28,753 nt of DNA from positions 1 through 28,753 of the IMG/VR virus record IMGVR_UViG_3300029930_000012. The stretch is one strand, 5' to 3'. A model generated the notes under the pieces. It did not search any database. It worked only from the letters and a program-made list of their open reading frames with translations, and was not told the DNA's origin. Below are positions 1,829 to 20,281 of this stretch, one piece after another. The DNA is from a virus. Lineage: Duplodnaviria > Caudoviricetes. Each line of letters starts with the position of its first letter. Within the stretch, counting starts at the first letter, position 1. Both the position numbers and the translations under genes were made by a program.

Positions 1829-2235
1829 GTAGATTCACATGGGGCCTTTGTATGGCCTTGGCCGTGCTGCCAGCGGCTGCATCACCGGGGGTAGATGCGA
1901 TGTTGGACGAGGCGGCCCGGAGACACAGCATTCCGGCGGACATCGTCCATGCCGTGGCGATGGTCGAAAGCACCAAAAGGTGCGGAGTGAAGAACGGTGG
2001 CTCACAGGGACTGATGCAAGTCCAGAGGGGAGCCGCCCGAGAAGTAGGTATCCAATTCCCGTTCAGATCCTGTGAGGATGAAATCGAGGCTGGTGTCCGG
2101 TATTTGAAGTTGGCCCTTGAGAAGGGCGGTTACGGGTGCAGCGGGATCACCCTTTACAACACCGGAATATACGCCAAGCCGCACTGTTCCGATTATGGAA
2201 GGAAGGTCATGAACATGAGGAAGAAGTTCCAATAA
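1825..2235 (+). CDS. Lytic transglycosylase (SLT domain) with signal peptide
   Basis: Catalytic AVAMVES, GLMQV and YNTG motifs; hydrophobic N-terminus. Confidence 0.88.
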   Translation: MSRFTWGLCMALAVLPAAASPGVDAMLDEAARRHSIPADIVHAVAMVESTKRCGVKNGGSQGLMQVQRGAAREVGIQFPFRSCEDEIEAGVRYLKLALEKGGYGCSGITLYNTGIYAKPHCSDYGRKVMNMRKKFQ

Positions 2236-2248
2236 TGTAAACGAAAAG

Positions 2249-2276
2249 TTGACATTACCCTGCCGAGGAGTAGGAT
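2249..2276 (+). promoter_or_regulatory. Sigma70-type promoter driving the small-ORF array
   Basis: TTGACA-16 nt-TAGGAT with an A-tract upstream. Confidence 0.65.
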
Positions 2277-2364
2277 GTGTTTTGTCCCTCGCCGGGACAG
2301 GTGGGCAGTCAATTGAACGCAAGCCTCTGGCTGCCCACCACTTAAACAAATAATTGAGATTGAT

Positions 2365-2646
2365 ATGAGCAAATCTTTTCGTATGGCTACGAAATTGATC
2401 CGTCCGGGCGGCGGTTGGCATGAGACCGAGGGCTTCGTTGTTACGTTCTGCCCTGACAAGATCTTTGATCAGGTCGTGATCGCCAGTAAATCTAAGTATG
2501 GGAACGACCAAGAGAAGATCAGCCTGTCTCTTGAGGAGGCAGAGTGGCTTGTGACGTTTATTAAACAGGCCAGAGAATCTTACGAGCAATGGAAGAAAAA
2601 CAAAGATAACGAATATGGGATGCGAGATTATGGTGAAGGCATCTGA
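2365..2646 (+). CDS. Hypothetical protein
   Basis: 93-aa ORF, first after the promoter and leader. Confidence 0.65.
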   Translation: MSKSFRMATKLIRPGGGWHETEGFVVTFCPDKIFDQVVIASKSKYGNDQEKISLSLEEAEWLVTFIKQARESYEQWKKNKDNEYGMRDYGEGI

Positions 2647-2845
2647 CAAATACCGAAACTGGTTTGACAGCGATAAGTTGGTCTCTGATCTGATGGATCA
2701 GGCGGCCGACGATATTGACGAGCGCGATGCCGAGATTGAGCGGTTGCGGGAGGCGTTAAAAGATAAGGATGAATTGATCCAATATCTCGAAGGTCACATT
2801 GATGGCCTAAAAAAGTTTGTTGTTCAACAAAAGGAGAGTGAGTGA
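2630..2845 (+). CDS. Modular array ORF 1 (EIERLREAL ... QQKESE)
   Basis: Contains repeats A and B; coiled-coil, ead/ea22-like motif. Confidence 0.7.
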   Translation: MVKASDKYRNWFDSDKLVSDLMDQAADDIDERDAEIERLREALKDKDELIQYLEGHIDGLKKFVVQQKESE

Positions 2846-2949
2846 TGGAAGTTTTATTACCAAGTCTGCCGGAGATAATCATCGCTCTGATTGGTGTTTT
2901 GGCGTGGCGGCACTATGAACGCATCAACCAACAAAAGGAAAGTGAATGA
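2845..2949 (+). CDS. Modular array ORF 2, 34-aa single-TM peptide (not in ORF track)
   Basis: MEVLLPSLPEIIIALIGVLAWRHYERINQQKESE*, bounded by two repeat-B copies. Confidence 0.7.
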   Translation: MEVLLPSLPEIIIALIGVLAWRHYERINQQKESE

Positions 2950-3200
2950 TGGATATGACACGTCACTATCATGATTTGTATGGCGAGGAATCAAAAGATC
3001 AGAAAATCAAACGTTTGTATGCCGAGATTGAGCGGTTGCGGGAGGCGTTGAAGATATTTGCTATTTACGCAGATTATCTTGACGAGAATTATGGAGACCA
3101 TCCTGACCATTATGTGTCTAAAGGATTTAGAGGAGAAATAATTACGTTTGGAGATTTTCGTAAAGCCCGTTCCGCCCTTCAACAGAAGGACAGTGAGTGA
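2946..3200 (+). CDS. Modular array ORF 3
   Basis: MMD start, AEIERLREALK, ARSALQQKDSE end. Confidence 0.75.
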   Translation: MMDMTRHYHDLYGEESKDQKIKRLYAEIERLREALKIFAIYADYLDENYGDHPDHYVSKGFRGEIITFGDFRKARSALQQKDSE

Positions 3201-3418
3201 TGGATATTGTTGAACAGCTTCGCAAATATCAATGTCCTGAAAACAAAGGGTGCAATCCTGTTGTTGATTATTGCCAATGCGCTTTGATGGATAGCGGAGC
3301 CGACGAGATTGAGCGGTTGCGGGAGGCGTTGAAAATAATTTCCTGCAAATGCAAATCAAATTGCGGAAAGGACGAAGGCAATTGTCTTTATTGGGTCGCC
3401 CGTTCCGCCCTTCAATAA
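3197..3418 (+). CDS. Modular array ORF 4, Cys-rich
   Basis: Two 4-Cys segments flank DEIERLREALK; ends ARSALQ* at a TAA inside repeat B. Confidence 0.75.
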   Translation: MMDIVEQLRKYQCPENKGCNPVVDYCQCALMDSGADEIERLREALKIISCKCKSNCGKDEGNCLYWVARSALQ

Positions 3419-3429
3419 AAGGAGAGTAA

Positions 3430-3750
3430 GTGATGGATGATAAAATTTACGTTGAGCCTCATGAAGCAACATGCACCATATTTTTAAAACAAGGGAAAAA
3501 AGTGTTTATCATCAAGGAAGATGGAACCCCTATGCTTGGGCCAGACGCAACGGTTGATGACGCGGCAAGAGTATTGGTTGATGCTCTCGCAGAAGGGATG
3601 CATAGATATATTTCTTCAATAAAAGCGGATAATGAACAATTGCGTGAAGCGTTGCGAGCCATAAATCGTAAAAATGATAACCCTGCTTGGTTCAATCCTG
3701 ACATTCATGAAATAGTTGAAACCGCCCTTCAACAAAAGGATACTGAGTGA
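3430..3750 (+). CDS. Modular array ORF 5
   Basis: NEQLREAL, TALQQKDTE end. Confidence 0.75.
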   Translation: MMDDKIYVEPHEATCTIFLKQGKKVFIIKEDGTPMLGPDATVDDAARVLVDALAEGMHRYISSIKADNEQLREALRAINRKNDNPAWFNPDIHEIVETALQQKDTE

Positions 3751-4148
3751 TGGACATCAAGACGCGTCTGACTCGATGCTGTGGCAAGCCAATCGGCGGC
3801 GACAATTGCCGTGAAGGACTGCGTTGCTCCGACTGCTTTGATAAGTTGGAAGGGTTGCGTGAAATTGAAGAATTGAGAGAAGTGTTAAAACCATTTGCAA
3901 AAATTGCTGATGATTATGAAACCCTTCATGACGAGGATTATGTCAGCGTCCACAGGCATGACATTGAACTGCGTCATTTTAGGGCGATCCGTTCTGTCTT
4001 TAATAAAAGCAAGGTGAAACATGGCGACCGTGAAAAAGGGGACGATAACGCCACCGCCGCAGTGGTGGAAGCATCTGAGAGATTGGAAAAGGGTGTTTTG
4101 GAAACGCGAGCGAAAGGCGCAAAACAAAGAGGCGCGGAAACAAAATGA
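3747..4148 (+). CDS. Modular array ORF 6 (Cys-rich N-terminus; C-terminus possibly read-through)
   Basis: CCGK..C..C..C, EIEELREVLK, and a degenerate AIRSVFNKSK where repeat B is expected. Confidence 0.6.
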   Translation: MMDIKTRLTRCCGKPIGGDNCREGLRCSDCFDKLEGLREIEELREVLKPFAKIADDYETLHDEDYVSVHRHDIELRHFRAIRSVFNKSKVKHGDREKGDDNATAAVVEASERLEKGVLETRAKGAKQRGAETK

Positions 4149-4161
4149 ACTTCATCGGTGA
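4021..4161 (+). CDS. Small basic Trp-rich protein (46 aa), not in ORF track
   Basis: AAGGTG RBS then MATVKKGTITPPPQWWKHLRDWKRVFWKRERKAQNKEARKQNELHR*. Confidence 0.55.
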   Translation: MATVKKGTITPPPQWWKHLRDWKRVFWKRERKAQNKEARKQNELHR

Positions 4162-4699
4162 TCTGTCGCGCCAAGACGCATGGGTGCTTGAAGAGTATGG
4201 GCACAGATGCCCGCGCATTCTCGAATTTGGTGCAGGTGGATCGACTCAGATCTTTGCTCAGTGCCAACCGACGGTGCTGATTAGCGTTGAGACTGCACAG
4301 GAATGGATCGACAAGACCAAGAAGAACTTGGCTCGGTATCAGCCATGCACTGATCCGGTATTCGTTCGATATGCCAGTCATCCGAGGCAGGAATACGATC
4401 TAATTTTCGTCGATGGCGTGTGGGATCTGCGTTGGGATTTTGCTCAAACGACATGGCCATTGCTGCATAAGAATGGCGTGATGATTTTCCACGATACACG
4501 GCGATGGTTCGATGCGCACAATGTGTTTGATCTGGCCAAAATGTATTGGAACGAAATCGACAAGATCTACATGAATTTGGACGATAGCAATTGCTCTATC
4601 ATACATAAGCGCCCGAAGGTTGAGTATGTGAATTGGAACTACAGCGAAGGCAAACCGTTGTGGATGTATGGGCAGGGCGATCCGCCAGAGGGGGAATGA
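4145..4699 (+). CDS. Class I SAM-dependent methyltransferase (Methyltransf_24-like)
   Basis: ILEFGAGGST motif I, ISVE, YDLIFVDG, IFHD. Confidence 0.8.
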   Translation: MNFIGDLSRQDAWVLEEYGHRCPRILEFGAGGSTQIFAQCQPTVLISVETAQEWIDKTKKNLARYQPCTDPVFVRYASHPRQEYDLIFVDGVWDLRWDFAQTTWPLLHKNGVMIFHDTRRWFDAHNVFDLAKMYWNEIDKIYMNLDDSNCSIIHKRPKVEYVNWNYSEGKPLWMYGQGDPPEGE

Positions 4700-5457
4700 T
4701 GACACCGAACACAATCCACTATGTTTACCCGGCATGGCCAAACACACGGCCGCTTTCGTATGTAAACTATATCTGCGTGAAGTCCGCGATTGAAAACCAT
4801 CATCCCGACAAGGTGAAGTTCTGGATTGATGGCGATCCGGTGGACAATGAATGGTGGCGCAAGATTCAGGATATGGTGACGGTTGAGCGCCGACCGATGA
4901 ATGGTTCATATCGAGGCATTGGAATTGAATGGCCGCAGCACCAATCAGACGTGACGAGGCTTGAGATCTTGAAGGAAGAAGGCGGGATATACCTTGATAC
5001 TGATGTTCTGGTTCTCCCATCATTTGAAATCATACTGGATGAAGAGAGCGATGATTTCGTAATCGGGACAGAACCGGGTGATAAGTCATTATGCAATGCG
5101 GTCATGATGTCACCTAAAAAGCATCCATTTATTGAGGAATGGTTGGACGTTATGCCAGCAGCTTTGGCATCCAACGTGTGGGCCAAAGGTGGCGTTGTTT
5201 CGCCCTTTGAAATTGCAGAATCATATACGACTAATTTGGTCATAATGGAGGCAGACAATTTCTGCCCCTTTGACTTGCATTATCCGTATGCTTTTGAGCC
5301 GAGGCTTACAAGGGCGGCGGAGGCTTTGACGGTAGACTCAAGCGCAATTCATCTGTTTGAAACCTATTGGCGCGATACCATTAAGAACATCACTCCAGAG
5401 TGGGTTGAGAAGAACGACTGTTATTTCTCGCGATTCGTTAAAGGGGAAATCGAATGA
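4696..5457 (+). CDS. DXD glycosyltransferase (GT32/OCH1-like sugar-binding domain)
   Basis: PNTIHYV, SDVTRLEIL..EGGIYLDTD, CNAVMMS...HPF, AIHLF. Confidence 0.85.
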   Translation: MMTPNTIHYVYPAWPNTRPLSYVNYICVKSAIENHHPDKVKFWIDGDPVDNEWWRKIQDMVTVERRPMNGSYRGIGIEWPQHQSDVTRLEILKEEGGIYLDTDVLVLPSFEIILDEESDDFVIGTEPGDKSLCNAVMMSPKKHPFIEEWLDVMPAALASNVWAKGGVVSPFEIAESYTTNLVIMEADNFCPFDLHYPYAFEPRLTRAAEALTVDSSAIHLFETYWRDTIKNITPEWVEKNDCYFSRFVKGEIE

Positions 5458-5771
5458 TCTTGCAATTAAACCCTCCCATTCCGGTGGAGACACCCAAGGG
5501 TAAGGCTTTGGCCCAACTTGTGATAGACTATGGCCCCGAGCATGATTTGCTTTGGGTTTGTTTTCAGGACAACACGAAGGAGTGCTGGACATGGGGAAAT
5601 CCGCAGATCAGGGCGCAAACAAATATTACGATGGACCGAATGCCATCGGACCCGAAGACCGCCTCATTTCCATTGGATGGCATTGGAATTACGGCTTTTT
5701 ACGACGCAGCGAAATGGACAACAGGGATAACTACAAGGGCTACTGTTACGAAGCCCCTGACGGTGACATGA
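5454..5771 (+). CDS. Hypothetical phage protein
   Basis: ATGA overlap with the upstream gene; LNPPIPVETPKG...IDYG.EHDL.WV. Confidence 0.7.
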   Translation: MILQLNPPIPVETPKGKALAQLVIDYGPEHDLLWVCFQDNTKECWTWGNPQIRAQTNITMDRMPSDPKTASFPLDGIGITAFYDAAKWTTGITTRATVTKPLTVT

Positions 5772-5929
5772 TTTATACAGAACGGGTGGATCATGATAAA
5801 ATATGTTTCTTCAATGAGTGGTTGGACGGCGAAACGCACGAAAAGTATCTTACTTTGGACCCGCGACCGACTAAGTTTTTGGTGGAAGAATATGGCTCTC
5901 GAAGCCATCCGGGTCGTGTGCAATTATGA
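5714..5929 (+). CDS. Hypothetical protein
   Basis: Internal ATG of ORF 5552-5929; fills the gap between neighbours. Confidence 0.45.
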   Translation: MDNRDNYKGYCYEAPDGDMIYTERVDHDKICFFNEWLDGETHEKYLTLDPRPTKFLVEEYGSRSHPGRVQL

Positions 5930-6203
5930 TTATCGGTTCGCCGCTGGTGCTGTGATGTGGGCCTTTCGGCAGCGCTGGCATATCTTCAAGATGCGTTGGC
6001 CAGTCTATAAACGGCTGCATGAATTGGAGAAGGATTATTGGCATCTTTGGGATCAGTGGGCCGAATTGGACTTACAGCATCGGTCGCTGTATATCAAATA
6101 TCAGGATCTAAATGATGAAGTTCGATATTGGGAAACACGACACGCAAAGATAATGAACTACATCGAAAAGAAAATGGAACTGGACGAAACTTGGGGGAAG
6201 TAA
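5892..6203 (+). CDS. Hypothetical coiled-coil protein
   Basis: Internal ATG; stop overlaps the next start (TAATG). Confidence 0.55.
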   Translation: MALEAIRVVCNYDYRFAAGAVMWAFRQRWHIFKMRWPVYKRLHELEKDYWHLWDQWAELDLQHRSLYIKYQDLNDEVRYWETRHAKIMNYIEKKMELDETWGK

Positions 6204-6958
6204 TGGACAATCCGCATATCTTTTTGGCCACGCCGATGTATGGCGGCCTTGCTCATGCGAAATACATGGAGAGCATTTTGATGCTTGCCAATTTCGCGCG
6301 GGAGAACAACGTGAGCATTACGTTCTCGTTCATGGGCAACGAAAGCCTGATCACTCGAGCGCGCAATGCATTGGCGCATGGGTTTATGACCACGCCATGC
6401 ACACATCTGTTTTTCGTCGATGCGGACATTGGCTTTAGGCCGATTGATGTGATCCGCATGATTAAAGCCGACAAGGACATCATTGCGGGTGTATATCCGA
6501 AGAAGGACATCAACTGGCTTGCCGTTGGCGCGGCCGCCCGCAGCGGAGTGCCGGACAATCAACTGTTCCGGCACACGGGCGACTTTGTGATCAATGTCGA
6601 TAATGCTCCCGAGGGCGGGTTCAGTGTTCCGACCGATGAGCCATTCCCTGTCCGCAACGCTGGCACAGGACTGATGCTGATCAAACGCAGGGTCTTTGAA
6701 ATCCTGAAGGACCATGTCCCGTCATACACGAACAACATGACGATGCAGAACCAATCGTTGCAGATGAAGCCGGACAAGATCTACGAGTATTTTGCGACAA
6801 GTATTGACCCGGAACACAACGTCCTTCTTTCGGAGGATTATCACTTCTGCCAGTTATGGAAAAAGACAGGCGGTGAAGTGCATATCGCGCCGTGGGCAGA
6901 TCTGACCCACAACGGAACATATGAATTTTCAGGACATTTTCAGCGAAAGCCGACCTAA
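6203..6958 (+). CDS. GT-A fold glycosyltransferase-like protein
   Basis: FLATPMYGG, ESLITRARN, LFFVDADI (DXD), AGTGLMLIKR.VF, LSEDYHFC. Confidence 0.72.
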   Translation: MDNPHIFLATPMYGGLAHAKYMESILMLANFARENNVSITFSFMGNESLITRARNALAHGFMTTPCTHLFFVDADIGFRPIDVIRMIKADKDIIAGVYPKKDINWLAVGAAARSGVPDNQLFRHTGDFVINVDNAPEGGFSVPTDEPFPVRNAGTGLMLIKRRVFEILKDHVPSYTNNMTMQNQSLQMKPDKIYEYFATSIDPEHNVLLSEDYHFCQLWKKTGGEVHIAPWADLTHNGTYEFSGHFQRKPT

Positions 6959-6960
6959 AA

Positions 6961-8694
6961 ATGTTAAAGAGGAAGCAACGATATGGAAAACTTTCTGATG
7001 ATAATTGGCTGGGCGGCGATCGTTTATCTTCTGTTAGAAGGGAAATAGAAGCAAAAAAAGATCGGCTTGCCCTGTTTTCCGGCACGGAATTTGAGGAATA
7101 TGATTCTCTCGTAAATATTTATCGCGAGGCCCTTCAAGGCAGCCTGTATTTGTTCTTGCGTGAATTCTGGCGATACATCGACCCGTCCGAATTTACTGAG
7201 GGCAAGGCCATTCAGGCTGTTTGTCGGCATCTTGAGGCGGTGAAAGATGGCCATATCAAGCGCCTGATCATCAACATTCCTCCGCGCTGTGCGAAGTCCT
7301 CAACAACGAGCGTTGCGTTTCCTGCATGGGTATGGGCGCAAGAAAAGGCGCATTGGTCGCCGACTTGCGGGCCGGGCGTTCAGTTTCTCCATGCGTCTTA
7401 TGCCCAGCAATTGGCTTTGCGTGATTCGGTGAAGTGCCGCCGACTGATTGAAACGCCGATGTATCAAAAGTTGTTCGGCAGTCAGGTCACTCTTACGGGG
7501 GACCAGAACACAAAGACCCGCTTCGATAATACTATGCGGGGCTCGAGGCTCTCTACGTCGGTCGGCTCGGCCCTGACGGGGGAAGGCGGGAACATTATCG
7601 TGGTTGACGATCCGAACGCCGCGCAGGAAGCGTTTTCTGATGCCACAATCGAAAGCACGATTGAATGGTGGGACAGCGCCCTCTCGACGCGTCTCAATGA
7701 CCCGAAGAGCGGCGCGTTTGTGATCATTCAGCAGCGGCTTTCGGAACAGGATTTGACCGGATACATCCTTGAAAAGGACGTGGGCGAATGGACCCACCTT
7801 ATGCTGCCAATGCGGTATGAAGAGGATCGGTCCTATTACACGAACATCGGCTGGAAAGACTGGCGCACAGAAGAGGGCGAACTGCTCTGGCCCGAGCGAT
7901 TTGGCGAGCGCGAAGTGGATTTGCTTGAACGCCAATTGGGCCCATGGGCGGCCGCAGGTCAGTTGCAGCAACGGCCGGAGCCGAAGGGCGGCGGTATCAT
8001 CAAGCGCGAATGGTGGCAGTTGTGGGAGGGCTCCGGATGGCCGCAGTTTGAATATGTGATTGCGGCGCTCGATACGGCTTATACGACAAAGGAAGAGAAC
8101 GACCCGTCAGCCATGACGATTTGGGGTGTCTTCTCCGGCGGAGATCAGGTGGCACAGGCCACGCGTGTGGCTACAAAAGACGGTGAATTTGTCAGCGCGA
8201 TCAGCCGAACATATACTAACAAACAGCCTCGGCGCATGATGATGATTCACGCATGGCAGGGTCGTTATGAACTGCATGAATTGGTCCAGAAGGTTCAAGA
8301 TTCCATGCGAACTTACAAGGTCGATAAGTTGCTGATTGAAAACAAAGCGTCAGGCATATCAGTCTCGCAGGAAATGCGTCGGCTGTATGGTTATGAGGAC
8401 TTTGCGGTGCAATTGATTGATCCGAAGGGGCAGGACAAGGTCGCTCGATTGTATTCGATCCAGCATCTGTTTGCAGAAGGGCTGATCTACACGCCCGAAC
8501 GCTCGTGGTCTGATGCGGTGATTAACCAGATGGCCACGTTTCCGAAGGGCAAGCATGATGACTTGGTGGACACAGTCAGTATGGCTTTGAGGCATCTGCG
8601 CGAGATCGGAGAGATCGTGCGTGACGATGAACGTGAGGCCGAAACAAACCGAAACATGGAATTCACAGGAAGGCCGTTGGAGCCGCTATACTGA
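6961..8694 (+). CDS. terL: Terminase large subunit
   Basis: INIPPRCAKS Walker A, IIVVDDP Walker B, QQRL, nuclease DTAY / IENKASG / FPKGKHDDLVD. Confidence 0.95.
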   Translation: MLKRKQRYGKLSDDNWLGGDRLSSVRREIEAKKDRLALFSGTEFEEYDSLVNIYREALQGSLYLFLREFWRYIDPSEFTEGKAIQAVCRHLEAVKDGHIKRLIINIPPRCAKSSTTSVAFPAWVWAQEKAHWSPTCGPGVQFLHASYAQQLALRDSVKCRRLIETPMYQKLFGSQVTLTGDQNTKTRFDNTMRGSRLSTSVGSALTGEGGNIIVVDDPNAAQEAFSDATIESTIEWWDSALSTRLNDPKSGAFVIIQQRLSEQDLTGYILEKDVGEWTHLMLPMRYEEDRSYYTNIGWKDWRTEEGELLWPERFGEREVDLLERQLGPWAAAGQLQQRPEPKGGGIIKREWWQLWEGSGWPQFEYVIAALDTAYTTKEENDPSAMTIWGVFSGGDQVAQATRVATKDGEFVSAISRTYTNKQPRRMMMIHAWQGRYELHELVQKVQDSMRTYKVDKLLIENKASGISVSQEMRRLYGYEDFAVQLIDPKGQDKVARLYSIQHLFAEGLIYTPERSWSDAVINQMATFPKGKHDDLVDTVSMALRHLREIGEIVRDDEREAETNRNMEFTGRPLEPLY

Positions 8695-8713
8695 CAAGTC
8701 TGAGGGGGACTGG

Positions 8714-9625
8714 ATGCGCGTTTTGGTTACGGGTGGGGCGGGCTTTATCGGCTCGCACCTGACTGCGAAGTTGATCCAGAAGGGCCACAACGTGACCGTC
8801 ATGGACAATCTTTACACAGGCAAGGTCGAGAACATTCCAAGTGGCGCAAACTTCTATGACGGGAACATCATCTATTCTCGGCCGCCGGGCGATTACGATT
8901 GGATCTTCAATCTGGCATGCCCTGCCAGCCCTCGGTGGTATCAGGAGAACCCGCTCAACACTTCACTGACCAATGTGAAGGGCATGATGAACATGCTCGA
9001 AATTGCGCTTTCCTCGGGCGCGCGCATTCTACAGGCATCGACGAGCGAAGTGTATGGTGACCCGCTGGTCTCGCCACAGCACGAAGACTATTGGGGCAAT
9101 GTTAATCCGATTGGTTTGAGGGCTTGCTACGATGAAGGCAAGAGAATGGCCGAGACCTTATGTTATGATTATAGCCGTCAGTATGGGGTGGATATTCGGG
9201 TTGCTCGCATCTTCAATACCTATGGCCCTCGCATGTCGATAAACGACGGCCGTGTGGTCAGCAATTTCATCGTGCAAGCGCTGCGTGATGAGCCGATTAC
9301 AGTCTACGGCGACGGCAGTCAGACGCGGTCGCTATGTTATGTCGATGACACTGTCGATGGCTTGATCGCGCTCATGCAGTCTGACGAGAAGCGCCCGGTC
9401 AACATCGGCAACAATCACGAAATTACGATGATACAGTTGGCCGCAAAGATTGCGACGAGGACGAGAAGCCAGAGCAAGATTGTGTTTGATGATCTGCCGC
9501 AAGATGATCCGCAGCGCAGAAAGCCTGACCTGAAACGCGCAATGGAATCGTTGAATTGGTCGCCGAGCGTATGGCTTGATGACGGGCTTGATATGACAAT
9601 CCAATACTTCAAGGGGATTATATGA
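8714..9625 (+). CDS. uxs: UDP-glucuronate decarboxylase (UDP-xylose synthase), extended SDR
   Basis: TGGAGFIG, NLACPASP, STSEVYGDP, YWGNVNPIG.RACYDEGKR, RIFNTYGPRM, DDP.RRKPD; GAGGGG RBS before ATG 8714. Confidence 0.9.
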   Translation: MRVLVTGGAGFIGSHLTAKLIQKGHNVTVMDNLYTGKVENIPSGANFYDGNIIYSRPPGDYDWIFNLACPASPRWYQENPLNTSLTNVKGMMNMLEIALSSGARILQASTSEVYGDPLVSPQHEDYWGNVNPIGLRACYDEGKRMAETLCYDYSRQYGVDIRVARIFNTYGPRMSINDGRVVSNFIVQALRDEPITVYGDGSQTRSLCYVDDTVDGLIALMQSDEKRPVNIGNNHEITMIQLAAKIATRTRSQSKIVFDDLPQDDPQRRKPDLKRAMESLNWSPSVWLDDGLDMTIQYFKGII

Positions 9626-9628
9626 AGC

Positions 9629-9883
9629 ATGATCTTAATGCGAAATGTTGACCCGAAGGCTGTGGTGAAATGGTTTAACAGTTACGGATCATCGGAGACC
9701 ATAAGATCTAATCCGCACTTGCAACAATGGACAGGCAAGGGTTGGGTTATGAAACTGCAATATGAAGTGGGCGTTATTCACTTCTATCTGATAATTGAAT
9801 TTAGCAATGAGGAACTTGAATATGCCTTCTATAGCAGTTGTCACAGCCACGACTGGACGGGATACTCTCAAGCAAACAATTGA
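9629..9883 (+). CDS. Hypothetical protein
   Basis: ORF filling the gap between uxs and the GT2 gene. Confidence 0.4.
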   Translation: MILMRNVDPKAVVKWFNSYGSSETIRSNPHLQQWTGKGWVMKLQYEVGVIHFYLIIEFSNEELEYAFYSSCHSHDWTGYSQANN

Positions 9884-10502
9884 GAGCGTTGCCGCGCAAA
9901 CTGTTGCATGCAAACACTATGTTATTAATGACGGTGTGCCGATGTCATCTGATTTAATTTCATGTCTTACGCATGTAAACTATTGTTTTTTGCCTGTTAA
10001 AACTGGTGGCAACGGCATGATGAATGGCGGCATCATCGCCGCATCTGCATATCTTGTGCAGGAGGATTTAATCTGCTGGCTAGATGACGACAATTGGATT
10101 GAGCCAGATCACCTTGAAACGCTGCTCGCAGCAAAGGAGGACAAGCCTTATGCTTACTCGCTTCGCAAACTGGTTGAACCAGATGGAACATTATTTGACT
10201 ACGATGACTTTGAGTCTTTGGGCATACACAGCGGTTTTATTGATCTAAACTGCTATCTTATGGATCGCCAGTTAGCGGTTCAACTTGCGCCGCTTTGGTA
10301 TAAGACCACAGGCGATTTGATGGTCGGTGATCGCTATGTGTATGATTGCTTAAGAGGCAACAGTCTCCCATACGGCGAGACAGGCCAATACACAGTCAAC
10401 TATCGTTTGAACCCGAAGCGTGATTTGCGCCCATGGTTCTTCGATGGAAACATTAAAAACCGTGCCAAATATTCCGGCGATCTGCCTTGGAGAAAGCAAT
10501 GA
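9822..10502 (+). CDS. Family 2 glycosyltransferase
   Basis: IAVVTAT.GR..L..TIESV.AQT, INDG, WLDDDN. Confidence 0.85.
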   Translation: MPSIAVVTATTGRDTLKQTIESVAAQTVACKHYVINDGVPMSSDLISCLTHVNYCFLPVKTGGNGMMNGGIIAASAYLVQEDLICWLDDDNWIEPDHLETLLAAKEDKPYAYSLRKLVEPDGTLFDYDDFESLGIHSGFIDLNCYLMDRQLAVQLAPLWYKTTGDLMVGDRYVYDCLRGNSLPYGETGQYTVNYRLNPKRDLRPWFFDGNIKNRAKYSGDLPWRKQ

Positions 10503-11389
10503 ACTTTGCTCAAGCCGTCAGCAAAATGCGCGGCCCCAATAAGATGCACATCATCTGCATCGACGTGACCAACAAGTGCGACCTTGCTTGCTCCAATTGC
10601 ACTCGTCTGTTGGAGAATCAGGACTCACATTGGGACATGACACCTGAAAATTTTCGTGCGGCGCTCCGCAGCCTGAAAGGATACTGGGGCGTGATTGCCA
10701 TGATCGGTGGCAATCCGTGCATGCACCCGAAGTTCAAGGAACTGTGCCAGATCTTTGTCGAAGAAGTGCCGAACCGCATGCAACGCGGCCTGTGGACCAA
10801 CAATTTCTTCAAGCATAAAGACCTGTGCGTTGATACATTTGGGACATTTAACCTAAACAGCCATGGCGCAGAGCGCGCCGAAGGACCATTGGAGGAACTT
10901 GCACAGGTTGCCCGAGAGCGCGGCGGACTTGTCTGGAACTATAAGGGCAATTCACAGCATGCGCCGATCCTGACAGCCATCAAGGATTTATATCCTGAAA
11001 GCACGATGTGGCAGATGATCACCGAATGCGACATCAATCGTGAATGGTCGGCCTCGATTGTGCAGGTAAACGGCGATATTCGGGCCTATTTCTGCGAAGT
11101 TGCGGCCAGTTTTGACCTTGCAAGGGGCGAAGATCATGGCCATCCGGTGGTCGAAGGCTGGTGGAAACAGGGAATTGAGGACTTTTCCGACCAAATCGGG
11201 CATTTTTGTCCGGGTTGCGGTGTCGCGGCGAAGCAAAAACCAGTTCTGGACAAGGAAGAAGTCGATTGCGTGACTGAAAGCAACTTAGATTTGATGAAAA
11301 AACCAAAAAGAACGGTGCTTTATGTGCAATCGGCTGATAGATCGAACGAACCAAGGCGCACAACGCTCTACAACCCAGTGGTGAGATAA
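10499..11389 (+). CDS. Radical SAM protein
   Basis: IDVTNKCDLACSNC (CX3CX2C), IGGNP.MHP, C-terminal C...FCE...FCPGC auxiliary-cluster-like Cys. Confidence 0.88.
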   Translation: MNFAQAVSKMRGPNKMHIICIDVTNKCDLACSNCTRLLENQDSHWDMTPENFRAALRSLKGYWGVIAMIGGNPCMHPKFKELCQIFVEEVPNRMQRGLWTNNFFKHKDLCVDTFGTFNLNSHGAERAEGPLEELAQVARERGGLVWNYKGNSQHAPILTAIKDLYPESTMWQMITECDINREWSASIVQVNGDIRAYFCEVAASFDLARGEDHGHPVVEGWWKQGIEDFSDQIGHFCPGCGVAAKQKPVLDKEEVDCVTESNLDLMKKPKRTVLYVQSADRSNEPRRTTLYNPVVR

Positions 11390-11934
11390 TGAATCACTAT
11401 CATCAGAAGATCCAAGGTTGGTTTCAGTGTGAACCACTTTACCGCCGGATGGTCGAACAGGCCAAAGACGGCTCAATTTTCGTGGAAGTTGGTGTTTGGA
11501 AGGGCAAATCAGCCGCTTTTATGGGTGTTGAGATCATAAATTCGAAGAAAAAGATCGAATTTTACGCTGTCGATCACTTTAAGGGGTCGCCAGAGCATCA
11601 AGATGACCCGACGATCAAAGGAAAAACGCTCAAAGAGGAGTGTTACAAGAACCTTGAGCCAGTTATGAACGTGGTGAAAATGCTTCCAGTGCCATCACTT
11701 GAGGCCGCAGCCATGTTTGCTGATGGTTCCATTGATTTTGTCTATATCGACGGCGCGCACGAGTATGATGATCTGAAGTCAGACATCATTGCGTGGGGTC
11801 CAAAGGTCAAAAACGGTGGGATAATTGCCGGAGACGATTACGGTATCGGTCGGCATCCGGACGTGAAGCGGGTTGTTGATGAGATCTTCCCGTCGGCGGT
11901 CAAGGAAGGTATTGTTTGGATCTATACGAAATAA
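11389..11934 (+). CDS. Class I SAM-dependent methyltransferase (Methyltransf_24)
   Basis: VEVGVWKGKS, AVDHF, DFVYIDGAHEY, GGIIAGDDY. Confidence 0.88.
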   Translation: MNHYHQKIQGWFQCEPLYRRMVEQAKDGSIFVEVGVWKGKSAAFMGVEIINSKKKIEFYAVDHFKGSPEHQDDPTIKGKTLKEECYKNLEPVMNVVKMLPVPSLEAAAMFADGSIDFVYIDGAHEYDDLKSDIIAWGPKVKNGGIIAGDDYGIGRHPDVKRVVDEIFPSAVKEGIVWIYTK

Positions 11935-14779: not shown

Positions 14780-17700
14780 ATGGCAGGGTTTGACACGAAG
14801 GAAATGATGAATCGTGCCATCCGTTACATGGCTCAGACTGCCATGGAGCGAGCCGCCGGAGGGTGGGTTCCGCCGAAGGAGCGTGAGCGTCAGCAAAAAG
14901 AGGCTATGCGCGCCGAAGAAAAACAGGCTCGTCAGGCCGAGAAGCAGCATAAAGAAGCCATTCGCGCGCACGAGAAAGAGCAAAAGTTGCTCTCAAAGCA
15001 GTTCCCGACACAATATATGCCGAACGTCGGCCGTCAGGTTATGGCGAAGGGCGGCAATGTCGGTGGCGATACTGCAAAATTTAAGGGACGCAATTTTTGG
15101 TCTGGCGTTTTTGACGCGCACGATGGAACGATCAGAGAAGTTCATCCGTATAAAAAAGCACAAGCGGCGGACTTCCACCATTCGTATTATGTTTCCGCTC
15201 ATCTGCAAGATGCCATGAAAAATGGAGACGCAGGTTTCTTCTGGGTTGATAAGGGTGGAAAGGTGAACACCCTTTGGCGCGATGAAGAAGCGCCTGACCA
15301 TATTGTTGATGCCATCCATAGTCAGATTGATAGAGAGGGCATGTCTTCCGGTGGAACGCCGGATGATCGCAATCAGGTTGGCTTATACAGCAAAGCCGCG
15401 CGCACGGTCGCTGCATTGCCGCAGAAGAAGGCCACCGGAGCGCAGATGGTTGCCGCTCTGCGAGATCCAAAGCGTGGCGTGAAGAAAGAAGAATTGATCA
15501 ATTCTGGATTGATGCTGCCTTCTGGGGAAGCGCATCCTGATTGGGCCAATCGCTCTGTCACTGCGGATGAACTTGCAAAACACTTCAGAGATCAGCAACC
15601 GCAAATCGAAGAAAAAGTGCTTGGCCGCCAGCCAACAGGATATAAGCACAAAACATCTGATGAGTGGAATGAGGCAGTTGCACAGGCTGAACTTGCTGGC
15701 AATTGGGAAGAAGCCAATCGTCTTCAAGAGGCATGGGAAAAATCAGAAGCGGCTCCGACAAAGTATCATGAGTGGACATTGCCCGGCGGTGAAAACTATC
15801 GTGAAGTTCTGTTAAAGTATAATCCAGAAGGAAATCGTTTACCTGAAGGTCATGAAATACAAAAAATTGAATATGATGATGGTCGTGTTGGATATTTTGC
15901 AGTTACGCCAACAACGAGAAGCCGTGTCTATTGGAATGAAGATGATGCAAAAAAAGATTTGCAATCATCAATTGAAAATTTAAAGGATTGGCGAGAAAAA
16001 AAGAATGGCTTTATATCTCAGCATTGGAGCGATCCAAACGTCCTTGCTCACATTCGCATGGCTGATCGCATGGGACCAAATGGTGAAAAGATTCTTCACG
16101 TTGAAGAATTGCAATCTGATTGGGGCCAAAAAGGGCGCGAAGAAGGATTTGGTGTTCCTCCAGAAGAAGAGGAATTGTGGCAAAAAACAGAAAAGCGAAT
16201 GAAAGAAATTCGCAGTAGAGAAGCGCAAATCATTGCCAATGAATTGGAAGGCAAGCCTGTAGACAAGCGCGAATTGCAACAACTGTATATTGAGCGCCAA
16301 AGACTTACGCCTGTTTATTCTGCACTTGAATTGAAGCGCGATACCGCAGTGCCTCACGGTCCTTATGTCACTTCGACAGAAGGATGGACTGATCTTGCTT
16401 TGAAGCGCGTTTTGAAAGAAGCCGCAGAAGGCGGATACGATAAGATTGTGTTTACGCCGGGTGAAGAACAGGCGAAGCGTTACAATTTAAGCGCTCATGT
16501 TGATCGTCTTGCATACGACCCTGAAGAAAAAACGCTCAGTTATTGGAAAAAAGGTGCGAATGCATGGACTGATCATCCAGAATATGTAGAACCAAATAAA
16601 TTGCATAAGGTAATTGGCAAAGAAGCAGCGAAGCAATTGCTTGCAACGGAGCCAAACAAGTTGAGTGGCATCCATTCAATGGATACTAAAGACCTTGTTA
16701 TTGGCGAAGAAGGGATGAAGGCATATTACAACCAGATTGTCCCGTCTCGTCTTCAAGATTTGGTTAAAAAACACGACCCGAATGCGCGGGTTGGTGTGTC
16801 TCAAATTGGTAATATTGTTCCTAAAAACACGGAATTGGAACAATTCTCGCAAAGCATCAACTTCGAACAGCCCGCGCAGCCAAAAGCGCCGATACAATTT
16901 ACGGGCGCATCTTTAGATGTCACTCCGCAATTGCGTGAAAGCGTTATGAAGGGGCAAGAGGCATACAAGCGCGGCGGAGAAGTTGATGGTTACGCCGATG
17001 GCGGTTCTCCTTCACTCAGCCAAAGAATTCTTGATTACGCCGAAACACTTCCTACGGCGGAAGAAAACATTGAAACAATCAAGAAGTTTGGCCGTAATGT
17101 AGGTGAAGGCGCTGCTGATATTGGCAAACGTGTTTTTTCTGGCTTTGAAAAAATGGCAGAGAGAGCATTGGACCGTAACCCACCACCAACCGTTCGCGCG
17201 GGTGAACGCCCTGTGTATGTTGAGCCAAAACGCGAAGAGCCACCGCAAAGACTTTATGTTTTGCCTGATGGTCGCAGGGTATCAGGTGCGGAACTTGAAA
17301 TGCACAACGAAATGATGCGTGAGCGTTTTGAAGAACAGTATGCGATGCCTCGCGTTGTTCAAGAAAACATGCCACCACAAAATCGTCCTGTGCCGACGCG
17401 CGCGCCCATGCGTGAAAAGTTGCTGCGCCAAGAACAACAGGCAAACGTAAATCGTCCTGTCGTTCTGCCAGAACGGAAGGGCTTTGACTTTCCACAAGTC
17501 TACAAAGACATCATGAGCGATGAGCCTCAGATGGAGTGGACAAAAGGGATGACCCCTCGTGAACAGGCTGCGCCAGTTAAAACGGCCGAAGGTTCAATTT
17601 TTGCATCACGGGGGAATGATGGTAGTGAATCAAATGCATCTGGCCCATTGGAAGTAAGCGTTACAAAAACAATTACAGGGCCAAAAGATGTGTATCTGGG

Positions 17701-20170
17701 GACAGGAGACACACCAAATCCGTTCCATAGCCATCAAACTATGGTTGCTTCTGCGCCAGAGTATGAAGGTCAGGTTGTGCCAATCCCTGACACGCCAGCA
17801 GATCGTATGGGCGAGCATCATCTTCCAAGGTTAATTTGGCCGATCCATGAATTAAAAAACAAGGAAGGATACAAAGCAAAGCAAGGATTGGAAGATTATA
17901 ATTCTCCGGCATCCGCTATTGGCGAGCGTTTTCCAACCAAAGAAGATGTTGATTTTTATCGTTCGGTTGATGCAACTTATGGCCGTCCGGAAGCGGGATA
18001 TTTGCAACAAGGCGCTCGAGGCAGTTTCTACGATGACTTAACCAATATGACGAGCCGACAAGGCGGGTATCGTCGCGATATGACACCGCAAGAGTCAGAC
18101 GCGTTTAATGCTGCTTATATCGCAGCGCAAAGAAATCCAATTGCTGCGCTTGGATTCCGCCCTGAAGAATTTGATTTTTCAGGCAGCCCTATTCCGCAAA
18201 CAACGGCTGGGATGGTATCGTCACCACAGAGCCGCATTTATGCCGATCTAAAGTTCCCATCTGTTGCTGTGCATGAAGCAATACATCGTGGTCTTCTTGA
18301 AATTAGAAACGAAGATTACAATGCGTATCTACAAAAAACTGGTAGCCTGTTGCAGGAAATGAATGATCTGGCAAAGCAGCCTTACAGTTCTGAAAAGTCA
18401 AAAAGGTTTTTTAAAATCAGTGAAGAACTAGATGCATTAAGAAAACAGCCAACAGACCCTGATATTTTCCCGCCCGGTCAAATTGGTGACGCGGAAGGAA
18501 AAGAGGACGAACAAGAAATGTTTGTCCGCTCTTTGATGTATAAAATGTTCGGGCCTGTTGAAGCATATGAAATGGAACGCCAACTAGTTAATGGCGATGT
18601 CATAAAAGAATACCCGCAAGAAAAACTTGAGCGCTTTATGAGCGACAATGCAGACCGCATTGCTCGTCTCGAACAACGCGCAATGAAAATGCTGCAAGAG
18701 CGCCAACGTGCGGCTGGACCGCGCGCAAGAGGCGGAGCGGTTCGTGGTAAATATGCTTTTGGCGGCAATCCGGGCGATATTGCAGGTGGCGGATTTGGCA
18801 CTGGCAACGTCGGTGGCGGCAGTTCTATCAGCAGCGGCGGAAGCATGGCAGAGGCTCGGGCGGCTGATCGCGCTTCTGTTTCTGGCTATTCTGCCGACTC
18901 CGGAGGCGGCTCATCGTGGAGCGGCGGCGGCGGTGGCGGTGGAGGCCGAGACAGTTCACCATCAAGAGATCGCGGCACAAGCGGTGGCGATGGCGGTCGT
19001 GATTTTAGCATCGGTGGGCCACAAGGTCTCACAGGCGCGCCCGCTTTTGGCCGTCCAGAACAAGGAACAGATACCTATAATCTGGACAATCGGCCTCCAA
19101 TGACGGTGGGCGCTCGTTTCAGTCCAAATATCGGCGCAGATCTAGTGAAAGAAGCCGTCACGCCTGATTTTAGCACAGGCAACAGTCCATTGGCCTCTGG
19201 CGTTTCGTCATACGATCAGAACGCAATCAACGCTCTGTATGATCGCATGCGCGCAGAACAACAAGCCGAGCGCAACGAATCATATGAGCGCTCTGTTGTT
19301 GGCCCAACAACGCCGCAAATTAATGTTCCGAATGCGGGCGATCTTTATGGTGCAACGGACGCGCTGTTGGCTGTTAATCAAAAACCGTCTGGCATGTTTG
19401 GGCAGCCAGAATTTGGCACAACGCGATTTGGTCAGAACCCGATGCAGTCAGGTTTCCCAAAACAGTCAGATATTGAAACGAGAGCATCTGGCCCATTTTC
19501 TCAGCCAAACAGGCCAATTACGCCAACGCCATTCTCGGGATATCCGCAGGAAGTGCAGAATGCGCTCAATCCAATAAAACCGGATTCCGCATTTGGCCAA
19601 ACTTTGATTGACCCAACAGGCAAATATACGAATCAGGCTCTGGATCAGATGGGCGTAGCGACTGATGCGGTGACAATGCTCAATTCGCCGACTTTGGCGG
19701 GTGCTTTTGTTCGCGCGTTCACTCCAACACCGACACCTGCAACTGCGCAACAGCAAGCTGCAATTGAGCGGATGTATCGCCGTGACTTGAACACAGGCGT
19801 TCCCGCAAACTTTGCGACACCGGAAGGCATGGCAGAGCGTTACGGCGCTCCGGGTGCAACGCCATTGGCACGGCCGGGCCAGACCCCGACGGCCTATCTG
19901 AGCGCAGGGCCATCGGCATCCACCGGAAGGCAGGACATGCCAATCGGTTCAACTTCAGTCGCGCCATCGCAGTCAGCGAATCAAACGCCAAGGGAAAATT
20001 TTGAACAGGCGTTTGCAGCCGCTCGCGCGCGCGGAGAACAGACGTTCCCGTGGACCAATCCAGCGACTGGTCAAACGATGCTTTACACGACCCAACTGGG
20101 CCGAAAGCAGGGTGGCCGAGTGCCGTCCCTGAAAGAGCCGGAACAGTGGGAGTGCAAAGAAAAGCGTTGA
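14780..20170 (+). CDS. Large polyvalent / probable virion-internal (ejected) protein
   Basis: 1796 aa. Polyvalent-protein-like domain (NYREVLL, HIR..DR, EELQSD, LKR.L.EA...GYD), AVHEAIH zincin motif, xxxGG motifs between modules, low-complexity C-terminal third. Confidence 0.7.
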   Translation: MAGFDTKEMMNRAIRYMAQTAMERAAGGWVPPKERERQQKEAMRAEEKQARQAEKQHKEAIRAHEKEQKLLSKQFPTQYMPNVGRQVMAKGGNVGGDTAKFKGRNFWSGVFDAHDGTIREVHPYKKAQAADFHHSYYVSAHLQDAMKNGDAGFFWVDKGGKVNTLWRDEEAPDHIVDAIHSQIDREGMSSGGTPDDRNQVGLYSKAARTVAALPQKKATGAQMVAALRDPKRGVKKEELINSGLMLPSGEAHPDWANRSVTADELAKHFRDQQPQIEEKVLGRQPTGYKHKTSDEWNEAVAQAELAGNWEEANRLQEAWEKSEAAPTKYHEWTLPGGENYREVLLKYNPEGNRLPEGHEIQKIEYDDGRVGYFAVTPTTRSRVYWNEDDAKKDLQSSIENLKDWREKKNGFISQHWSDPNVLAHIRMADRMGPNGEKILHVEELQSDWGQKGREEGFGVPPEEEELWQKTEKRMKEIRSREAQIIANELEGKPVDKRELQQLYIERQRLTPVYSALELKRDTAVPHGPYVTSTEGWTDLALKRVLKEAAEGGYDKIVFTPGEEQAKRYNLSAHVDRLAYDPEEKTLSYWKKGANAWTDHPEYVEPNKLHKVIGKEAAKQLLATEPNKLSGIHSMDTKDLVIGEEGMKAYYNQIVPSRLQDLVKKHDPNARVGVSQIGNIVPKNTELEQFSQSINFEQPAQPKAPIQFTGASLDVTPQLRESVMKGQEAYKRGGEVDGYADGGSPSLSQRILDYAETLPTAEENIETIKKFGRNVGEGAADIGKRVFSGFEKMAERALDRNPPPTVRAGERPVYVEPKREEPPQRLYVLPDGRRVSGAELEMHNEMMRERFEEQYAMPRVVQENMPPQNRPVPTRAPMREKLLRQEQQANVNRPVVLPERKGFDFPQVYKDIMSDEPQMEWTKGMTPREQAAPVKTAEGSIFASRGNDGSESNASGPLEVSVTKTITGPKDVYLGTGDTPNPFHSHQTMVASAPEYEGQVVPIPDTPADRMGEHHLPRLIWPIHELKNKEGYKAKQGLEDYNSPASAIGERFPTKEDVDFYRSVDATYGRPEAGYLQQGARGSFYDDLTNMTSRQGGYRRDMTPQESDAFNAAYIAAQRNPIAALGFRPEEFDFSGSPIPQTTAGMVSSPQSRIYADLKFPSVAVHEAIHRGLLEIRNEDYNAYLQKTGSLLQEMNDLAKQPYSSEKSKRFFKISEELDALRKQPTDPDIFPPGQIGDAEGKEDEQEMFVRSLMYKMFGPVEAYEMERQLVNGDVIKEYPQEKLERFMSDNADRIARLEQRAMKMLQERQRAAGPRARGGAVRGKYAFGGNPGDIAGGGFGTGNVGGGSSISSGGSMAEARAADRASVSGYSADSGGGSSWSGGGGGGGGRDSSPSRDRGTSGGDGGRDFSIGGPQGLTGAPAFGRPEQGTDTYNLDNRPPMTVGARFSPNIGADLVKEAVTPDFSTGNSPLASGVSSYDQNAINALYDRMRAEQQAERNESYERSVVGPTTPQINVPNAGDLYGATDALLAVNQKPSGMFGQPEFGTTRFGQNPMQSGFPKQSDIETRASGPFSQPNRPITPTPFSGYPQEVQNALNPIKPDSAFGQTLIDPTGKYTNQALDQMGVATDAVTMLNSPTLAGAFVRAFTPTPTPATAQQQAAIERMYRRDLNTGVPANFATPEGMAERYGAPGATPLARPGQTPTAYLSAGPSASTGRQDMPIGSTSVAPSQSANQTPRENFEQAFAAARARGEQTFPWTNPATGQTMLYTTQLGRKQGGRVPSLKEPEQWECKEKR

Positions 20171-20211
20171 GTCGCTATTGTGACGCTCGGACCTATGTTA
20201 TCTTCTCAGAA

Positions 20212-20261
20212 GTCTTGATCTGCCCAAGACCCCCTATCCGGCAGACCGGAGGACGCTCCGG
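20212..20261 (+). promoter_or_regulatory. Leader H-type pseudoknot plus hairpin
   Basis: GTCTTG/CAAGAC stem; loop TCTGCC pairs with GGCAGA (20240-45); then CCGGAG-GACG-CTCCGG. Confidence 0.55.
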
Positions 20262-20281
20262 CAATCCTAGTGGAGCCACTT

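Follow-up and report, generated by a model that had tools for sequence, protein, structure and literature searches.

Short protein-coding repeats as probable recombination joints in a mini-gene array of an uncultured tailed phage

The array, its setting and its two repeats

The window, that is, the whole analysed stretch of 28,753 nucleotides, is a tailed-phage contig with a CheckV completeness of 49%, in which profile searches recognised primase, TerS, SLT, TerL, portal and capsid genes. An array of mini-genes lies on its plus strand ahead of TerL, flanked by the SLT gene and a methyl-/glycosyltransferase block, and is AT-richer (GC 44%) than its flanks (51-54%). The metagenome runs containing this stretch are from freshwater, lake or estuary. 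The window TerL best matched an uncultured spring phage (47%) and Roseobacter phages (41%), the TerS search matched only the already-known relative, and the cultured phages that were searched for array relatives gave no convincing match. The sole bacterial-genome match to the family of array genes was a 5-kb contig in a Fluviibacter bin, which is possibly mis-binned and was left unused for host inference; on it, a family array (L157:1027-3653) immediately follows genes that by eye are exonuclease-like, ERF-like and NinB-like. Elsewhere in the window, a block of methyltransferase-, glycosyltransferase- and epimerase-like genes surrounds TerL (4145-11934), one of its proteins (4699-5454) having a DXD glycosyltransferase domain, and this block possibly serves virion or DNA glycosylation. 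Between the portal and capsid genes (14780-22843), two very long proteins of low complexity (1,796 and 857 aa) contain many occurrences of a short K/A-x-GG-R motif, which is in part repeated at the DNA level.

The features of the array are collected in Table 1. The sequence-only reading had described six coupled ORFs, most of them with a layout of variable N-module, repeat A, variable C-module and repeat B. The positions of these ORFs hold, but o0 had been omitted, o6 reads over o7, and o4 terminates early and is uncoupled from o5 because B4 has TAA where a relative has CAA (damaged junction 3416-3433). The layout likewise applies in part: exact A is present in three of the six ORFs (o1, o3 and o4), but A is worn in o5 and o6 and missing from o2, and o6 has no intact B. 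Around o7, joints at 3868/3869>4020 were seen in metagenome runs, and L042 and L071 contain similar DNA.

Table 1. Features of the mini-gene array and its leader, in window coordinates
Feature	Position	Strand	Basis or comparison
Sigma70-like promoter candidate, TTGACA-16 nt-TAGGAT (10/12)	2249-2276	+	Motif scan; kept in relative L024
Two leader hairpins in predicted 5' UTR, downstream of promoter candidate	2283-2340	+	z -4.4; relative z -3.5; paired base changes in L024
o0, 93 aa, without A or B	2365-2646	+	Missing from near-identical phage; joint 2368>2645 in runs X8, X9
o1 = N1 (acidic)-A-C1-B1, 71 aa	2630-2845	+	N1 95% identical in L002 with different C-half; N1 also in run X15
Repeat A copy 1	2731-2757	+	Exact repeat search
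Repeat B copy 1 (C-terminal QQKESE, AGGAG, TGATG overlap)	2810-2850	+	Repeat search
o2, 34-aa hydrophobic (likely membrane) cassette, B1 to B2, without A	2845-2949	+	Sequence
Repeat B copy 2	2914-2954	+	Repeat search
o3 = N3-A-C3-B3, 83 aa	2949-3200	+	N3 and C3 in separate genes of G004/L014
Repeat A copy 2	3023-3049	+	Exact repeat search
Repeat B copy 3	3165-3205	+	Repeat search
o4 = N4 (4 Cys)-A-C4 (4 Cys), 72 aa, early TAA stop inside B4	3200-3418	+	Sequence; homologue splits
Repeat A copy 3	3304-3330	+	Exact repeat search
Repeat B copy 4, carries early stop	3398-3438	+	Repeat search; comparison with relative
o5 = N5-worn A (about 3634-3660, NEQLREAL)-C5-B5, 105 aa	3433-3750	+	C5 after N4 in P0011; after other N-half in X10, X11, X15
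Repeat B copy 5	3715-3755	+	Repeat search
o6 = N6 (Cys-rich)-worn A (about 3862-3888, EIEELREVL)-C6	3750-4148	+	N6 92% identical in L002 with different C-half
Decayed junction inside o6	about 3985-4023	+	o6 without intact B; reading continues over o7
o7, 46-aa basic ORF (QWWKHLR...KRVFWKRER), overlapped by o6 read-through	4021-4161	+	Optional separate cassette in relatives

A near-consensus sigma70 promoter had also been proposed, and a candidate of that kind exists and is kept in L024, but it precedes o0, which separates it from o1. Since the scan total was close to that of shuffled sequence (5 sites vs 4.2), only the score and conservation of this one site carry weight. Within the array, sigma70-like sites reached only 9 of 12 positions, which is chance level, with none recurring at A or B, and no stem-loop terminators were found at the A copies or at B1-B5. 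The predicted leader hairpins could be an antitermination or processing signal; an Rfam search of 2100-4300, hairpins included, returned no match.

Exact matching confirmed that the 27 nt of repeat A, which encode EIERLREA, are identical in three copies. The pairwise exact matches between these copies extend over 31, 27 and 30 nt, and A is the sole exact repeat of at least 20 nt in the whole window. For three EIERLREA peptides to be spelled alike at all 8 codons by chance, the probability is 1.4e-7 if calculated from window codon use and 6.8e-5 if calculated from the position-specific codon use of the family. Repeat B was indeed found five times, but its copies are not letter-identical: identity to the reference copy is 61-90%, and the longest exact match between any two is 8-18 nt. 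It encodes the last residues of a gene together with an AGGAG-type ribosome site and the TGATG overlap.

The spelling of A was compared among 114 codon-blind matches to the exact peptide EIERLREAL, located on 97 contigs. Copies within the same contig share 7.65 of 9 codons (20 pairs, 14 contigs), whereas copies on different contigs share 4.52 (6,408 pairs), or 5.32 when GC-matched (686 pairs), against a codon-use expectation of about 3 (permutation p 2e-4 for within vs between, with pairs that are not independent). Three of the 14 contigs are exceptions, their A spellings sharing just 4-5 of 9 codons. Junctions at B are also more alike within contigs (17.2 of 30 nt shared) than between them (13.8 of 30), and the spellings of the two repeats co-vary: GEGK(E) endings go with the ATA..CGT spelling of A in 8 of 8 cases, and KEGE/KEKE/KGDE endings with the ATT/ATC..CGG spelling in 24 of 24. 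This sameness of A and B within genomes follows the pattern of repeats homogenised by exchange.

Half-gene swaps in relatives and in the wider family

All swaps reported here were read from assembled contigs, the events being inferred from comparison. The closest comparison is with L002, whose SLT and TerS are 99% and 97% identical to those of the window. Its array has three cassettes where the window has eight ORFs, namely N1-A joined to a new C-half, a new N-half joined to A-C4, and N6-worn A joined to a new C-half. DNA identity between the two arrays stays at about 95% to the end of A and then collapses; in o6 it ends at the worn A, where joints at 3868 were also found in runs X8-X11 and X15. 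L018 and L020 show joins identical to those of L002. An N4 swap is also present in L022. In G004, N3 and C3 occur at 93-94% DNA identity but are split over two genes, despite terminase and capsid proteins only 28% and 39% identical to those of the window; between these very distant phages, 7 synonymous changes but no replacement change separate the two versions of C3 (40 codons). An independent lake contig of 5,552 nt from run X15 contains a third layout, which, read from alignment pieces, has the order N1-A-new, new gene, N4-A-C4, new-worn A-C5, new short piece, N6-new, methyltransferase. Further joints at A or B were seen in X8-X11 and X13, many of them short-sided and perhaps derived from other phages.

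Searches with single window genes gave the same picture. Among 33 homologues of o4, N4 was joined to another C-half in 24 (23 split by script and one read by eye) and C4 to another N-half in 2, while 7 had neither half and none had both. The N4 half was followed by 17 C-half families among 23 proteins. For o3 (n=18), C3 followed another N-half in 15 cases (12 by script, 3 by eye) and N3 was the half present in 1, with neither half in 2 and both in none. Because these searches were clustered at 90% identity, near-identical whole copies are hidden in the query's own cluster. One protein, P0011, fuses the window's N4 to the window's C5. The ends of homology vary by several codons around A, and worn A copies are swap points as well. 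The sequence-only reading had proposed that A-A exchange joins the same N-module to different C-modules and that B-B exchange changes the number of cassettes; both patterns were seen, the former in L002, G004, L022, X15 and the o3 and o4 homologues, the latter in the cassette counts of L002 and the window and in the third layout of X15.

A codon-blind scan for EIERLREAL returned at least 121 viral loci, with about 330 estimated. From 113 contigs we collected closed ORFs no longer than 170 aa, 176 distinct ones in all, with the consensus MDIVERLR-variable-AADEIERLREAL-variable-ARxALxExE. In 144 of the 176 the stop overlaps a following ATG or GTG. In the 155 ORFs whose two modules were of sufficient length, more than one partner was counted for 8 of the 10 N families that recur and for 11 of the 12 such C families. 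When five ORFs added by hand were included with the 176, module-containing alignments were partial in 61 of 63 cases, and 54 of 68 internal homology ends fell in the A zone, which makes up 35% of the gene interior; by the zone rule used, the remaining 14 lay inside modules. Homology over the full length at 88% identity or more was found for 4 of 47 family pairs vs 17 of 22 pairs of neighbouring small genes (pairs not independent), and at 75% identity for 4 of 74 vs 35 of 56. Short middle modules between two A copies recur in the family, and whole cassettes are duplicated in G018. In the latter genome, L161 (G018:17500-23500) has some 20 coupled cassettes, of which three occur in duplicate and many have a B junction only and no A. 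A family profile matched at least 6,185 of 7,983 scored protein clusters (90% identity), a count that may include coiled-coil false matches, and the 40 array-bearing records had 1-10 profile matches each, mostly clustered.

Homologous exchange at A and B, and alternative explanations

We consider it most likely that A and B are short homology joints for general homologous recombination, with half-genes re-joined at A and whole genes gained, lost or replaced at B. Crossovers or strand annealing would occur between co-infecting phages or sister copies, in identical patches of 23-40 nt, and the agent would be a phage strand-annealing recombinase where present and host RecA otherwise. An A-A crossover would keep the frame and yield a new N+C protein or insert a short middle module, and a B-B crossover would transfer a cassette without disturbing its ribosome site or its translational coupling. 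Repeated exchange would then homogenise the repeats and lead to lineage spellings that mark exchange pools. Minimal pairing lengths are given as 23-27 bp for Red-beta and 31-34 bp for RecA, with divergence tolerated (passages of PMC3945230). The window A matches of 27-31 nt are at these quoted lengths; against the proposal, the B matches in the window are shorter, and only 18 of 96 within-contig A pairs attain 23 exact nt. Strand-annealing-type recombinases were detected in 20 of the 40 array-bearing records and in 10 of the 21 near-complete ones, leaving 11 without, and the records fall into disjoint sets (ERF 11 of 40, AAA_24 above cut-off 5, RecT 2 and Rad52 2). The AAA_24 matches we take to be Sak4-like. 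None was recognised in the window, which is 49% complete, or in G004 among ORFs of 130 aa or more outside its last 2 kb. To call the array recombinase-free, as had been done, is too strong: general recombination would still be required, even if a profile search for tyrosine recombinases found no site-specific enzyme common to the records. Circular intermediates, which in PeSL cassettes are extrachromosomal mini-circles, gain no support from the contigs, with one circularly permuted pair (window o3 vs G004) among 50 adjacencies (shuffled null 0.77, P 0.55). The repeats may have been selected as joints, or they may be by-products of protein constraint and homogenisation.

Alternatively, a sequence-specific recombinase or nicking factor could act on A and/or B as its sites, in the manner of integrons or shufflons, an explanation that we regard as unlikely. 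Integrons are translation-ready cassette arrays behind one promoter and need IntI/attC, and shufflons swap variable C-termini in frame and need Rci with inverted sites. The strong codon fixation in A, where CGG is the choice for one Arg codon in 99 of 114 copies (background 15%) and GCG is used in 86 of 114, could reflect a sequence-specific factor, as could the very sharp breakpoints; a Chi-like role of the CGG codons is also conceivable. Such a factor is, however, difficult to reconcile with A having two or more spellings and B several, with swaps at worn A copies, and with homology ends that differ by several codons around A. Moreover, A and B are direct repeats throughout, and no inverted pair was located at either among the longest 25 of 124 local inverted pairs. 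The tyrosine recombinase profile PF00589 matched just 7 of 41 records (5 of 21 near-complete), and was absent from the window (49% complete) and from G004. A recombinase with sites of the integron or shufflon kind was neither found in the window nor common to the family, attC being judged by the inverted-repeat list only. General recombination is favoured over a site-specific system because no tested enzyme is common to the arrays.

The remaining explanations concern what the cassettes are and whether the swaps are real. If the array were neutral or selfish filler, with translatable cassettes spread by recombination and useless products, this would agree with function searches that gave nothing, with the damaged o4 and o6 junctions and with the dispensability of every cassette in relatives. 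We find it very unlikely, however, in view of dN/dS values of 0.17 (12 N pairs) and 0.12 (11 C pairs) in ungapped pairs picked at 80% identity or more, and of the purely synonymous changes in C3; these data show purifying selection on the variable modules. Even less probable are ordinary Ead/Ea22-like paralogues, with the peptide alone conserved and the variable parts diverged in place. Their architecture of N-part, coiled coil, variable C-part and '+GE' end, as given in passages of PMC7093339, is similar, and the nearest named ESM Atlas cluster, a lead only, is 44% Ead_Ea22 (score 0.80-0.82). Yet the arrays are not fixed among relatives, halves match at 90-100% identity to one side of A but show no relationship to the other side, the synonymous sites of A are not free, and no PF13935 match was obtained; the swaps already refute this explanation, unless they are artefacts. 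That the swaps are assembly chimeras at a repeat common to co-occurring phages is the least probable of these explanations. Assemblies are the whole evidence base, and k=31 contigs of the runs that may be the source of the stretch do break at A copies 1 and 2. On the other hand, the L002 joins recur in three records (with L018 and L020), P0022 and P0036 are supported by 5 and 4 contigs, respectively, X15 is one contig spanning the array, exact matches at A reach 55 nt or more in only 5 of 15,982 between-contig and 0 of 96 within-contig pairs, and the swapped halves differ mostly at synonymous sites.

Relation to known systems and possible role of the products

Homology joints of this kind have precedents. 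In T4-type phages, the short variable-region repeats of PeSLs provide homology for general recombination, by which small orphan genes are inserted, deleted and replaced, with no dedicated recombinase identified in the parts of these papers covered (PMC2839356, Arbiol et al. 2010; PMC4122927, Comeau et al. 2014). The array resembles them in that genes gained, lost or replaced between closely related phages have their boundaries at repeats. PeSLs, however, are intergenic promoter-terminator elements that move whole genes, whereas both repeats of the array are protein-coding and there is one promoter candidate at its head. Because A sits inside the gene, half-genes are swapped in frame, and because the repeats are coding and without promoter or terminator, the array is not a PeSL member. 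In the 'linkers' of Botstein and Campbell, conserved short flanks allow targeted and viable module exchange (as described in the Discussion of PMC2839356). Repeat B can be seen as such a linker, carrying a ribosome site and a stop/start overlap. Linkers were proposed between genes or gene blocks, whereas the second linker here splits proteins of 60-130 aa into N, middle and C modules that can be combined. Work on lambdoid 'boundary sequences' is related to the linker idea of modular phage evolution. Linker terms are absent from PMC9836094. Literature searches, covering mostly open-access texts and including the peptide EIERLR, yielded no description of the family or of such an intragenic joint. 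Shuffling of the PeSL or linker type by general recombination is already known; the array differs by its in-frame joint inside the gene.

Lambdoid Ea22 (Ead/Ea22, PF13935) is a small early protein described in passages of PMC7093339 and PMC10834534 as having an N-part, a coiled coil of patchwork type, C-parts that are unrelated to one another, and a '+GE' end that is conserved. In the present family, many members similarly end in KEGE, KGDE or GEKE, and the predicted models of o3 and o4 have an N-part, a long helix and a variable C-part. By analogy with the KEGE/KGDE endings, read as a ribosome site overlapping the next gene, the '+GE' end of Ea22 may be a ribosome-site/overlap junction too, as the comparison suggests. 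A tetramer formed through the coiled coil is a further trait of Ea22. In contrast, those passages describe Ea22 as a single exo-xis gene and contain no account of DNA joints or tandem arrays, and the present array sits between TerS/SLT and the methyl-/glycosyltransferase block and not in a lambdoid exo-xis region. The PF13935 profile matched none of the 8 window array ORFs, 56 family members or 5 genomes. Domain shuffling in phage proteins has been described as an ongoing exchange of fragments in receptor-binding proteins, endolysins and replication proteins, tied to conflict with the host, although with no fixed DNA joint in the passages covered (Smug et al. 2023, PMC10684548).

The product was predicted, with moderate confidence, from monomer models of o4 (pLDDT 73, helix 26-54) and o3 (pLDDT 77, helix 16-48). 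It would begin with a short helix and a variable loop, continue as a long helix that includes EIERLREAL, and end with a variable module followed by a last helix. Family, structure and defence profiles lend no support to the suggested host-interaction or anti-defence role: PADLOC matched 0 of 8, the window ORFs and family members gave only scattered weak Pfam matches, o5 had one partial PHROG match of unknown function, the best hit among PDB sequences (E 0.003) was coiled-coil-like noise, and Foldseek against viral and PDB libraries gave nothing at E 0.001, the top viral row being an uncharacterised protein of an uncultured phage. In the ESM Atlas, the closest clusters were unnamed (0.90-0.91) and named ones scored at most 0.82. 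A class of small variable phage genes is said in passages of bioRxiv 10.1101/2023.04.06.535777 mostly to antagonise defences or other viruses, and these passages describe no repeats of the A/B kind. The idea of host interaction is raised by context, because the genes are small, variable, selected and dispensable and lie behind a strong promoter candidate. We put at about even chances that the products are a small helical, maybe coiled-coil scaffold which, early in infection, presents its variable modules to targets in the host or in rival phages. A further-reaching and doubtful possibility is that freshwater phages share a combinatorial, lineage-partitioned protein library, in which N, middle and C modules would be assembled into thousands of small proteins that have one helical scaffold in common, the two protein-coding joints would be kept by selection for evolvability, and each pairing would combine a targeting and an effector module against host defences, antibody-like and with no dedicated enzyme.

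Whole-protein profiles miss this family (3 of 100 members matched any PHROG at E 0.001, weakly and all of unknown function) because its proteins are new combinations of modules. Splitting the proteins at the joint would give a defined catalogue of modules that could be screened against defence systems, and the array is a natural substrate for measuring the formation of in-frame chimeras by short-homology recombination. The family is large and spans distant phage lineages, and its modules are under selection. On this view, many short phage orphan genes are new combinations of reusable modules of 15-50 aa, which provides a concrete source for part of them.
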